Shown: positions 59,965 to 64,000, numbered from the stretch's first letter. The stretch is 64,000 nucleotides of DNA from Terriglobia bacterium (GCA_963666975.2 CAXVYR010000004.1:1824001-1888000), one strand, 5' to 3'. Made by a program: numbers and translations. Notes: generated by a model not told the origin, from the letters alone.

Positions 59965-60627
59965 TTAATTACCGGCGAAGCAGTAGAACAATCCGTCGCC
60001 GCCTGAGCTTTGCAAGGCTTCCTGGCTGCAGCCTCTGGATGGGTGCGTCGAGTTCCACGACGTGCTGCCGCCGCCCTGGCGGTCGTGATGGCCGACCATG
60101 GCGCTGCCCGCATCGCTGCTGGTCCAATTCCGGCAGGTCCGGTCCTCGCTGCCCGCAATCGCCCTGCCGTGTGAATCGGAGCCCGTCAGGATATCGTGCC
60201 GGTTGGGGCTGTCTCCTCGGCCGTTGACTACCTCGCCTTTCTCGTTCAGCGCCGTGTCCTTGAAAAGATAGTTGCGGTCGCGTTCGATGTCCCCGTGCAG
60301 GTCGGCGACGTTTGGAGCGATGCGGACCCCCTTGGCGTTGTGCCACGGTCCCTGGCCGATGCGGTCGCGGGCATGGACGGCTGCCTGTCCGCCGGAAGCG
60401 CTGGTGCTGAGGTAGGCGCGCCATGTGCGATCGCCTGCCCCCGCTGCTGCGGCCAGCATCTGGCAGTGCCTGTCGGCTCCGGCCAAGCCGCCCAGATTGG
60501 CTCCATTGCCTGGCCCCGTGCTCGTGACGAAGAAGCTCATCGGGGCGTCTTGCGCAAGCACCCAGTACGAGCCCAGCACAGCCAGCAGGACCGCAGCAAC
60601 TACATATTGCATCTTACTCATATGCAT
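59965..60627 (-). CDS. Secreted endostatin/DUF1554-like protein
   Basis: Signal peptide; SFFVTS..G.GANLGGLAGADRHCQ..A...TWRAYLS, HDILTGS, TCRNWTS and GLFYCFA. Confidence 0.85.
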   Translation of the reverse strand: MHMSKMQYVVAAVLLAVLGSYWVLAQDAPMSFFVTSTGPGNGANLGGLAGADRHCQMLAAAAGAGDRTWRAYLSTSASGGQAAVHARDRIGQGPWHNAKGVRIAPNVADLHGDIERDRNYLFKDTALNEKGEVVNGRGDSPNRHDILTGSDSHGRAIAGSEDRTCRNWTSSDAGSAMVGHHDRQGGGSTSWNSTHPSRGCSQEALQSSGGDGLFYCFAGN

Positions 60628-60832
60628 GTCGGTTCTCCTTCACGATGTTGTTTTGATGATGACCGCCCATGTCGGTTCGCCTTCTGCCGGTGGCTAGGGT
60701 AATACAAAATCGCGAGCCACATGCAGGCTTGGGCCGCTCCGGCAGCGCAGGGACGCACAGCAATTCTCCAGCGCAGGGGCTACTACCGCCACGCCCCTGC
60801 AACGGACAGAATATTCCGCGCCCTGATTCAGG

Positions 60833-61270
60833 CTACGGCCGGATGGGTCCCTCTGCTGGCCGGTCGACTTTGTCCACTACCTTTTGATTTTCCTTCTTCC
60901 AGTCGCGAATCCCGCAAAACGGACCCGCCTTGTAGCCCGCCTTCAGGAATTTTGCAGCAGCGCGCTCCGCGCGCCCTCCACCCTGTCAGTAGAAAACAAG
61001 CTCGATATCTTTCGGGATATCCTTCATCCGCTTGTCGAGATCGGCCACGGGGATGTGGATGGCGCCAGCGATCGCGCCGTCCTGTTCCAGTTCCCAGTCT
61101 TCGCGAACATCGATCAGAAGGAATTTTTCGCCGCTATCCAGTTTTTCCTTCAGTTTGGATATGGCGATCCGCTCCGGCTTGCTGGTCTCCTTCTGCTGAG
61201 CTACCCCCAATGGGCTGGAGGTGATGAACAGCGCGAGCAGGGCGGATGCAATCGCAAATTTTCCTGCCAT
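60833..61270 (-). CDS. Exported rhodanese-domain protein, probable selenoprotein (UGA = Sec95)
   Basis: LIDVRE..E...G.I.GAIHIP...LVFY-TGA-QGGGRAERAA..F..AGY...GIRDWK; frame stays open 50 more codons to TAG 60833; hairpin right after the UGA. Confidence 0.85.
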
Positions 61271-61361
61271 TGTTGCCTCCCGAGTGTAGGAAATCGTTCT
61301 GGGGATCAAAAGTGCATTCTACGCAAATTGCCGATACAGAGCAATGGTTCGTGCCGAACGA

Positions 61362-61530
61362 TAGTGTCTCAGTTTGAAATCGGCAGGGCTAGATCGTTTT
61401 TACGAATTGTGTATCCCGTCAGGGCACGGTTCAGACACCCCAGCACGCTGACAGCGGCGCGCTGGGGGCCCCGTCAAACCGTGCCCTGACAAATCGTGTG
61501 TCGCTGTGCCTAACGGAAACTGACCCACTG
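61362..61530. mobile_element. MITE-like element with a long internal hairpin
   Basis: Ends AGTGTCTCAGTTT / AAACTGACCCACT; internal GTCAGGGCACGG (61418) / CCGTGCCCTGAC (61490). Confidence 0.6.
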
Positions 61531-61657
61531 CCTGATCCATCATCAATTGGACAGTTGCCGGCCCTATTTGGTTAAATGATGACCGGGGTATTCCTGTTCA
61601 GACTTTGCAGGATGCGCTTGCTGAGCGCAAGGGAGAACTCGCAATGGAGACCTATCG

Positions 61658-62584: not shown

Positions 62585-64000
62585 CTATATTCCGTTTCCT
62601 TCCAACAGTTCAATATAACCCATGCGGTTGGAAGTATTCCCGGACCACCAGACGCGGTTTGGGTTGTTCTGGTCCACCTCAATCCGGCGATGATCCTCCT
62701 CGGCGTTCGCCAGGGGAAACTCGACCCATTCTTCGGTTCTGGGATTAAAGCGGGCGATTTTGTCCACGTGCTGCTGGGCAACCCAAATCAGATCATGCTG
62801 CAAGTCTACGCTCACCGCATAGGTGCCGCTATTCTCGGTTGGGGGTGTAAAGACCGACATTTTATTGGTCTTATAATCGATCTTCAGAATCTTGCCGGCG
62901 CCATGCAGGCCGAACCAGACGTTGCCTTCCGAGTCCGGTCCTCCCTTGCGCGGGACAGCGCCTTCCACGGGAATCTCGAACTCTTCAATATTGCCGGTAA
63001 CCGGATCAACGCGGGCCATCTTATCCATGGCGTTCAAAGCGAGCCAAACCCCTCCGTCGCCCGCAATGGCCATCCCGTAGGGGCTGGCGCTGCGTCCCGC
63101 CTTGACCCCGGAAGGAATTTCAAAGCCGGTGAACTCCCCGGTTTTGAGATTCAGCCGGATGGTCGTGTTATTGCCGATGGCGTTGAACCAGACGGTGCCA
63201 TTAGGGTGGTCCCGCATGGTGTTGCCGCCGGGCGCGCCGGTTCGCAGCTTGGTGGTCATCGTAAAGCTGGTAAACTCTTCTGTTTTCGTGTCGTATGCCA
63301 TCCACCGGCGGTTGGGGCCGTAATCGATAAACCACAGTTTGTTGTTGTCGCCGGCCCAAATGGCGTTCAGCTTCACGGTGCTGGATTCTCCCGGCGGGGT
63401 GGCAATCTCGGTGTAGGCCAGTGTTCTTGGATCCATGCGGCCCAGCAAGCCGGTCTTCCGCAAGCTGACCCAGCCGTTCCCGTCCGAGTCCACGGTCACT
63501 TCGTGAGGTTCCGTATCGTGAGTGGGGATTTCAAACTCCACGGCGATGTATTTAGTGGCCGCGCCCGTCAGCAGAGTCCTAGGCAGGCGGCTGTTGGGAT
63601 CCGGCTTCGCCCTTGCTGGCCCGCCTGATTCGCTCTCGCCGAAGTTCTTTACATCGTAGTCGAGCAGGACGGCTGCTTCCTGATCGGTCATGCTCATTCC
63701 AAGTTGTGATGAGCCCTTCATGAACATGCGCATGCCGTCGATGGTTTCTTTCCACTGTGCCCGGTCCACCCGGTGGCTCGCGACTTGATCGGGGTTGCGA
63801 TGGCAACCAACGCATTTTGTTTCAATGATGGTCTTGCCCGGCCCTTCCGGCAGGGGGATAGGCTCTGCCGCTCCTCCTCCTGCCTGGCCCGGTTGCCTTC
63901 CCGGCCACGCTGCCGGCAGCATCGGCGCCTGCGGAGCCGTGAGCGACAGGTTCACCGTCGCGGGTTGGCCGGCCTCCACATCTGCCGCAGCCGACCATTC
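62585..64000 (-). CDS. Cytochrome c plus Vgb-like beta-propeller protein (5' end outside the window)
   Basis: LPEGPGK..IETKCVGCH heme motif with downstream Met; repeated PH/PY-x-x-x-x-D-x-x-G-x-V-W blades. Confidence 0.85.
   Translation of the reverse strand, partial: EWSAAADVEAGQPATVNLSLTAPQAPMLPAAWPGRQPGQAGGGAAEPIPLPEGPGKTIIETKCVGCHRNPDQVASHRVDRAQWKETIDGMRMFMKGSSQLGMSMTDQEAAVLLDYDVKNFGESESGGPARAKPDPNSRLPRTLLTGAATKYIAVEFEIPTHDTEPHEVTVDSDGNGWVSLRKTGLLGRMDPRTLAYTEIATPPGESSTVKLNAIWAGDNNKLWFIDYGPNRRWMAYDTKTEEFTSFTMTTKLRTGAPGGNTMRDHPNGTVWFNAIGNNTTIRLNLKTGEFTGFEIPSGVKAGRSASPYGMAIAGDGGVWLALNAMDKMARVDPVTGNIEEFEIPVEGAVPRKGGPDSEGNVWFGLHGAGKILKIDYKTNKMSVFTPPTENSGTYAVSVDLQHDLIWVAQQHVDKIARFNPRTEEWVEFPLANAEEDHRRIEVDQNNPNRVWWSGNTSNRMGYIELLEGNGI

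Follow-up and report, generated by a model that had tools for sequence, protein, structure and literature searches.

A Putative Exported Rhodanese with a UGA-Encoded Selenocysteine at the Catalytic Position from a Terriglobia Bacterium

Gene Structure and Reading Frame

In the DNA of a Terriglobia bacterium, a rhodanese-like reading frame stops at a TGA where the catalytic cysteine (Cys) would be expected, and the question is whether this TGA is a true stop, a lesion, or a codon for selenocysteine (Sec, U). The locus lies in a stretch of 64,000 nucleotides (the window; GCA_963666975.2, CAXVYR010000004.1:1824001-1888000), and the initial annotation had described it as a hidden selenoprotein gene. 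The table-11 open reading frame (ORF) ended in ...IELVFY and was halted by the TGA at 60986-60988 on the minus strand. When TGA was translated as U, the frame extended from the ATG at 61268-61270 to the TAG at 60833-60835. The complete coding sequence at 60833-61270 (minus strand) thus comprised 145 codons and the TAG, with the UGA as codon 95, and the product was a protein of 145 amino acids. Both the halt at the TGA and the read-through of 145 amino acids to the TAG had been claimed initially, and they were confirmed at these coordinates. A putative Shine-Dalgarno-like GGGAGG (61276-61281, minus strand) was read from the sequence 5 nt upstream of the ATG, and a consensus scan of 60600-61650 for promoters and terminators returned 0 and 0 sites. 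For the RNA libraries, one metatranscriptome contig (237 nt, 0 differing letters) covered 60892-61128 and bridged the TGA, and it might derive from contaminating DNA; two other RNA-library contig sets covered only 60700-60846 and 60700-60815.

The best explanation of the locus is very probably that 60833-61270 (minus strand) is one intact gene for an exported single-domain rhodanese, with a UGA-encoded catalytic Sec, a hairpin serving as the Sec insertion element (SECIS), and a chemistry that involves a second cysteine, Cys119. The part of this explanation that concerns the gene and its recoding is nearly certain in our judgement. Selenium at residue 95 is a prediction that draws on the recoding signals, the machinery of the genome, and homology.

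Conservation of the UGA in Orthologs

A total of 140 orthologous loci, most of them from Acidobacteriota, were collected from genomes and metagenomes. At the codon aligned with the UGA, 136 of these loci had TGA, and the other 4, which represented two distinct Cys sequences, had TGC. The genome-search loci together with public genome contigs accounted for 58 TGA and 2 TGC of 60, and the metagenome contigs for 78 TGA and 2 TGC of 80. Because the orthologs are kin, such counts overstate their independence. Among 61 related genomes, the best 24 places (E ≤ 1.7e-14) contained one TGA in 23 cases and none in 1, and the TGA occupied the same alignment column in all 22 of the 22 stop-carrying loci. 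Furthermore, a phylum sample of 401 genomes yielded 12 genomes (13 places) matching at E ≤ 1e-25, and each place had one TGA. One genome (G106) provided a single row in the phylum-sample tally and one of the 46 rows of the codon table, and it was excluded from all other counts.

The orthologs occurred in many Acidobacteriota genomes and on contigs from soil, groundwater, marine, and sponge metagenomes. The record titles named metagenome-assembled genomes (MAGs) of Acidobacteriota, Terriglobia, and Solibacteraceae, and one MAG labelled Candidatus Binatia. The ortholog on the contig of that Candidatus Binatia MAG (L052) might reflect transfer or a binning error; the other named orthologs with at least 45% identity were all from Acidobacteriota. 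In addition, two genomes had two copies of the Sec-rhodanese with a TGA in each, namely G036 (C4:1056484-1056897 and C4:32462-32875) and G166 (C1:192315-192725 and C1:2970772-2971143).

Cys forms of the protein were also found. Among the best 120 matches in the protein database, 13 were full-length (137-151 aa), and all of them had Cys at the aligned position. When 32 Sec forms and 11 Cys forms were analysed by maximum likelihood, the Cys forms were nested among the Sec forms in the resulting tree, whose root was undetermined; 4 switches between Cys and Sec were needed, at least 2 of which were forced by well-supported branches. These Cys proteins and the 4 loci with TGC would be expected if the TGA here were a nonsense mutation, a pseudogene lesion, or a base-call error in a gene that normally carries TGC or TGT, and the initial annotation had named such codons in close relatives as grounds for refutation. 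As a rule, the relatives did not carry them, and the ortholog counts refuted such a reading: the TGA recurred in independent assemblies and metagenomes, and Cys was present only in a minority. Moreover, the conservation past the TGA was as high as before it, DNA and RNA-library contigs of other runs showed identical letters, and the conserved hairpin described below accompanied only the TGA forms. The probability of a mutation or sequencing error is therefore regarded as negligible.

Coding Sequence beyond the UGA

The mean pairwise identity of 42 indel-free Sec forms was 0.70 downstream of the UGA (codons +1 to +33) compared with 0.66 upstream of it (codons -45 to -1). For the same sequences, the entropies at codon positions 1, 2, and 3 were 0.57, 0.53, and 1.34 downstream (codons +10 to +33), and 0.69, 0.40, and 1.22 upstream (codons -45 to -1), respectively. 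R100, G112, C119, D123, W124, and K125, all located past the UGA, were invariant among the 43 aligned Sec and Cys members. The protein ended in a conserved C-terminal tail (residues 126-145, ...VDRPAEGPIRP; 60836-60895, minus strand) with the consensus DRPAxGPIxP, in which P138 was at least 90% conserved. Coding conservation 3' of the TGA was one of the points on which the initial annotation had proposed that the selenoprotein could fail, and the identity, the codon-position entropy, which was highest at the third position, and the invariant residues all indicated that it continues.

Rhodanese Domain and Active Site

The protein matched the Pfam family Rhodanese (PF00581) with 54.7 bits against a cut-off of 22.2. 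The matched domain covered residues 39-114 (60929-61156, minus strand), a match that crosses codon 95, and it was also recovered in the PDB alignment and the structural model. In a phmmer search against the PDB, U95 fell in the column of the catalytic Cys of rhodanese domains with solved structures, and the initial placement of the UGA at the rhodanese active-site Cys was thereby borne out. For the Shewanella persulfide reductase (3NT6/3NTD), the wild-type and mutant chains differed at the U95 column, and the titles of the entries named C531S. The UGA codon (60986-60988, minus strand) opened the active-site loop U95-Q-G-G-G-R100, a loop of six residues of the C-X4-R type, in which R100 was one of the residues invariant in the 43 aligned members. 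According to the rhodanese/Cdc25 rule, C-X4-R is the sulfurtransferase type and C-X5-R the phosphatase type.

The AlphaFold model, computed with the 43-row family alignment, had a mean pLDDT of 87.1, with values of 93-98 over residues 31-145, tail included. Residues 1-30 were of low confidence and contained a low-confidence helix at 6-17. In the model, the strand 90-95 terminates at residue 95, and the strand 114-120 has C119 close to its end. The top Foldseek matches were all rhodanese domains, which belonged to CoA-disulfide/persulfide reductases, persulfide dioxygenase fusions, and single-domain sulfurtransferases.

The model also bears on whether the UGA is a true stop, in which case a fragment of 94 amino acids would be made and the conservation past the UGA would have some other source. 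Gene callers do end the gene there, and about 106 of the best 120 database matches were 92-116 aa long with a query coverage of 44-65%. The NCBI records among these best 120 matches were 93-94 aa long and bore the names 'rhodanese-like domain-containing protein' or 'hypothetical protein', and all public records examined gave the gene as a fragment of this length. However, a product of 94 amino acids would stop just short of the catalytic residue 95 and would be devoid of the last helix-strand-helix of the modelled domain. The downstream part was in the same frame, displayed substitutions of the coding type, and aligned with the C-terminal half of the Cys-form homologs. The true-stop explanation is thus given a very small probability, and translation through the UGA is preferred.

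Hairpin Downstream of the UGA

The UGA was followed by 10 nt (CAGGGUGGAG, 60985-60976) and then by a SECIS-type hairpin (60959-60975, minus strand), which consisted of the stem strands GGCGCGC (60975-60969) and GCGCGCU (60965-60959) and the loop GGA (60968-60966). This hairpin, together with the FCG that contains the second Cys, was present as the initial annotation had claimed. A stem rule was defined as a contiguous stem of at least 7 bp, a loop of 3-8 nt with G in the first two positions, and a start 8-22 nt past the UGA. A stem of at least 7 bp was found by this rule in 100 of 106 distinct Sec-form sequences, and the identical geometry (10-nt spacer, 7 bp, 3-nt loop) in 94 of the 106. As controls, the rule was satisfied by 4.2% of 5000 synonymous resamples of this gene and by the sequence following 51 (5.2%) of 984 TGA codons that end long ORFs of this genome as ordinary stops.

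Over the 106 sequences, 97.4% of the 742 pair cells held standard pairs, compared with 14-71% when the 3' partner was slid. Pair 15-29 was G-C in 95 sequences and A-U in 7, and its change on the 3' side converts Ala to Val and is therefore not silent; pairs 17-27 and 14-30 alternated between G-C and G-U. The observed covariation score was reached by 0 of 500 shuffles. In the 46-row codon table, the synonymous entropies of codons +4, +5, and +6 (GGG, CGC, and GCG) were 0.43, 0.60, and 0.27 bits, respectively, compared with about 1.1-1.8 bits for most other four- and six-fold codons of the gene under the same phylogeny. The first letter of the loop was always G (GGA, GUC, GGC, or GGG).

The Cys forms did not have the hairpin, and their longest rule-type stems were 3 and 2 bp; this natural control consists of only two distinct Cys-form DNA sequences. 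They encoded the same or similar residues by other codons, one of them by GGC AGA GCC TCG CGA GCT. In two more divergent groups of Sec forms, different hairpins were observed a few nucleotides further downstream, namely GCUCC-N8-GGAGC in the clade L043-L047 and GCCGCG-N5-CGCGGC in the more distant clade L025-L028. Two members of the former clade (L046 and L047) had just 4 contiguous pairs by the stem rule. The hairpins of these divergent clades, as read from their sequences, fit a conservation of structure and not of sequence.

Folding energies did not discriminate the hairpin. The RNAfold energy of a 71-nt segment had a z-score of -0.65, and 48 of 200 dinucleotide shuffles folded as well, so it was not exceptional. 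When the 14 codons past the UGA of this gene were resampled synonymously, an equal or lower energy was obtained in 518 of 2000 trials; the corresponding values for eight Sec forms were 201-1264 of 2000, and the value for a Cys form was 1456 of 2000. In this GC-rich background, RNA that encodes G-G-G-R-A-x-R-A-A folds well whichever codons are used. The energy tests were therefore replaced by the geometric stem criterion with its genome and resampling controls. In an Rfam search at E up to 10, the region had no family match, and the only returns were three chance snoRNA-like matches on the opposite strand. The hairpin is moderately beyond chance in this single gene and far beyond chance across the orthologs. 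The SECIS-like element of the initial annotation proved to be conserved, covarying, and missing from the Cys forms.

For the fdhF SECIS of Escherichia coli, a minimal upper stem-loop of 17 nt, located about 11 nt past the UGA, is sufficient. The hairpin here is likewise 17 nt long, starts 10 nt past the UGA, lies in the coding region, and has G as the first letter of its loop. However, it is a predicted SECIS with a triloop (GGA, GUC, or GGC) where fdhF has GGUC, and the bulged U of fdhF is absent.

Selenocysteine Machinery of the Genome

The source genome (4 contigs, 98.9% complete) was searched for selA, selB, selC, and selD, on which the initial annotation had made its proposal depend, and the complete set was found. 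SelA scored 466 bits, the SelB-specific winged helix was detected within an ORF of 654 aa, and a tRNA-SeC gene with the anticodon tca represented selC. SelD scored 349.5 bits and was encoded outside the window (C4:1360322-1361257, plus strand; L003) with one in-frame TGA, ...TVKAAG-U-ASKLSPKVL. The U in ...AAG-U-ASKLSPKVL is at what we take to be the known Sec/Cys site of SelD. In addition, the model of the formate dehydrogenase alpha subunit (FdhA), TIGR01553, gave nothing over the cut-off and no match with a TGA in this genome, which indicates that the complete Sec machinery here is not kept for a classical FdhA client.

On this basis, the GC-rich hairpin of 17 nt, with its 7-bp stem and its G-led triloop, placed 10 nt past the UGA, would act as a bacterial SECIS. 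SelB with Sec-tRNA(Sec) would bind the hairpin and decode the UGA by means of the selA/selB/selC/selD set of the genome. The computed signals show recoding and not the chemistry of the residue, which leaves room for a UGA recoded to another residue, such as Cys inserted by a mis-charged tRNA(Sec) or the product of near-cognate read-through, with the hairpin only stimulating the read-through. The Cys/Sec switches on the tree also count for such recoding, since they imply that either residue is functionally tolerated. On the other hand, selA and selD are intact with scores far over the cut-offs, SelD itself has a UGA at its Sec/Cys site, and 984 long ORFs of the genome end in the ordinary way at TGA. 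Recoding to a residue other than Sec is accordingly given a small probability, and insertion of Sec at codon 95 is preferred.

Export, Second Cysteine, and Proposed Mechanism

The N-terminus resembled a signal peptide (residues 1-24, 61199-61270, minus strand), with MAGK, a hydrophobic core, and GVA/QQ; by the hydropathy rule, the best 12-residue Kyte-Doolittle window was 2.70, at residue 5. The rule demanded a short, basic N-terminal stretch, a hydrophobic core (12-residue hydropathy ≥ 1.8), and a small-residue site ahead of a Gln/Glu-rich linker. Such an N-terminus was predicted in 38 of the 43 aligned members, which agrees with the signal peptide proposed in the initial annotation. The remaining 5 comprised one member that was apparently truncated at its N-terminus and four short forms of the Solibacteraceae type (L024, L075, L076, and L078). 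These forms were 106-107 aa long and had neither the signal peptide nor the DRPAxGPIxP tail, and they kept the UGA, the same hairpin, and the second Cys. The short subfamily is presumably a cytoplasmic version, as it has no signal peptide.

The second Cys, Cys119 (FCG; 60914-60916, minus strand), is a candidate resolving residue. The initial annotation had pointed to this residue, and it turned out to be invariant in 43 of 43 aligned members. The second Cys was also retained in more distant Sec forms (VTA-U-NGGGRAARAA...SCG). In the rhodanese topology, the strands 90-95 and 114-120 are neighbours in the parallel sheet. Because these strands are adjacent, an intramolecular Se-S bond between U95 and C119 appears plausible in the model, with the proximity taken from strand adjacency only.

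The following chemistry is proposed. Sec-dependent export and cleavage of the signal peptide would yield a U95 selenolate in a loop of the C-X4-R sulfurtransferase type. U95 would take sulfane sulfur (or selenium) from donors of the persulfide, polysulfide, or thiosulfate type as a Se-S adduct. Cys119, invariant and located on the adjacent strand, would next relay this adduct or resolve it to a selenenylsulfide within the molecule, to be re-reduced by a thiol reductant of the periplasm. Uptake of periplasmic sulfane sulfur or selenium as a Se-S adduct is favoured because the nearest solved relatives handle persulfides. The Se-S chemistry with Cys119 is offered tentatively, as a real possibility. 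A more specific proposal is that U95 and Cys119 form a selenenylsulfide redox couple, so that the protein would reduce or carry persulfide, polysulfide, or selenium species in the periplasm, be recycled by thiols, and not be a simple sulfurtransferase; this is, on balance, unlikely. To our knowledge, such a catalytic mode has not been described for rhodaneses. If the redox couple were true, this rhodanese would also be, in this genome where no Sec-type formate dehydrogenase was found, one of a small number of clients that could explain why many Acidobacteriota retain the Sec machinery.

Comparison with Known Rhodaneses

Sec-containing rhodaneses have been catalogued before. In its tabulated entries, a 2026 review lists five Sec-containing rhodanese forms, of which forms 2 and 4 are UxxG (PMC13188914). 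The catalogued proteins trace to Zhang & Gladyshev 2005 (bSECISearch) and the Sargasso Sea selenoproteome (PMC1088965), as far as the available text of these sources goes. Within the same limits, a 2022 review and the Sargasso Sea paper (PMC1088965) describe the same kinds of Sec-rhodanese. The protein here, likened by motif and descriptions, shares with forms 2 and 4 the PF00581 domain, Sec at the catalytic Cys, and U-x-x-G (U-Q-G-G). The initial statement that Sec-containing rhodaneses exist thus agrees with the review entries, where U at this very position is already catalogued (PMC13188914). Since UxxG Sec-rhodaneses are on record, the gene is a further example of a known selenoprotein kind. 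According to the entries, forms 2 and 4 are known from comparative-genomic prediction only, and the Sec-rhodanese entries themselves make no mention of a signal peptide, the periplasm, or Acidobacteria (PMC13188914). The representative accessions of the review were absent among the NCBI accessions returned for clusters of this family.

The other catalogued forms are less similar. NF041203 (rhodanese_LYCAU, 'rhodanese-related (seleno)protein', form 3, CxU) is likewise small and single-domain and can carry Sec. However, its Sec is two residues past a retained Cys, whereas here Sec replaces the Cys itself (Y-U-Q-G), and the protein and the DNA scored 40.6 and 33.2 bits, respectively, against a cut-off of 115. 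NF045694 (TsoB, form 5), a rhodanese/DsbD fusion-like selenoprotein, shares a rhodanese domain with Sec, and its DsbD part would imply an extracytoplasmic thiol-redox context. From its partial description, TsoB is a fusion model of 572 positions with UxxxxU and two Sec, whereas the protein here has 145 aa, one Sec, and a single domain; the score was 23.3 bits against a cut-off of 805. No NCBIfam selenoprotein model attained its cut-off with this protein. COG2897 is presumably the two-domain SseA type and differs in this respect from the single-domain protein here. The Sargasso Sea Sec-rhodanese was filed under COG2897 in the available part of that paper (PMC1088965).

Compared with Cys-containing rhodaneses, the protein is distinguished by Sec and by its second Cys. 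E. coli PspE and the Wolinella polysulfide-sulfur transferase Sud are periplasmic single-domain Cys rhodaneses associated with sulfane-sulfur carriage or periplasmic thiol redox. They have in common with the protein here the signal peptide and one rhodanese domain; we know of no second conserved Cys in PspE and Sud. The PspE/GlpE models NF007627, TIGR02981, and NF001195 gave 19.6, 16.3, and 20.0 bits against cut-offs of 102, 126.3, and 102, respectively. The best sequence and fold matches in the PDB were 3NTA/3NT6, 3ICR, 8A56, and 5VE3, with an identity of 25-36% and an rmsd of 1.6-2.8 Å over about 100 residues. In these matches, the rhodanese domain has Cys and forms the C-terminal part of a large cytoplasmic flavoenzyme or fusion, whereas the protein here is free-standing, predicted to be exported, and equipped with a predicted Sec, one more Cys, and a conserved tail.

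In the part of a 2006 survey that covers Acidobacteria, only 3 selenoprotein families were counted, and no Acidobacteria Sec-rhodanese of this kind is described there. In the Geobacter ExtH/ExtKL system, as partially described, a non-Sec rhodanese-like protein is encoded beside a Sec cytochrome. Recognition of the family would correct the annotation of the truncated gene wherever it is present, and would enlarge the Acidobacteriota selenoproteome. Furthermore, the gene is a compact test case, with 145 aa, a 17-nt predicted SECIS, natural Cys variants, and a candidate resolving Cys, and it bears on why selenium replaces sulfur in an extracytoplasmic sulfur-transfer enzyme. The knowledge of Sec decoding is unchanged by the gene.

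Gene Neighbourhood

No conserved gene neighbour pointing to any pathway was found within 2.5 kb at 120 loci. When the neighbour ORFs of these loci were clustered, the largest cluster included 22 loci of one subclade, and none of the twelve largest clusters contained an ORF from the locus of this window. Accordingly, no operon partner emerged. Just 3' of the rhodanese gene, an ORF of 220 aa (59965-60627, minus strand) had a signal-peptide-like start and a sub-threshold match to DUF1554 (22 bits against 27.5), and it was not among the twelve most widespread neighbour clusters of the orthologous loci. Another ORF in the window (62585-63979, minus strand) encoded 464 aa, with a C-x-x-C-H motif (KCVGCH, haem c-like) and a Vgb_lyase/SGL beta-propeller (PF24684, 110.8 bits).
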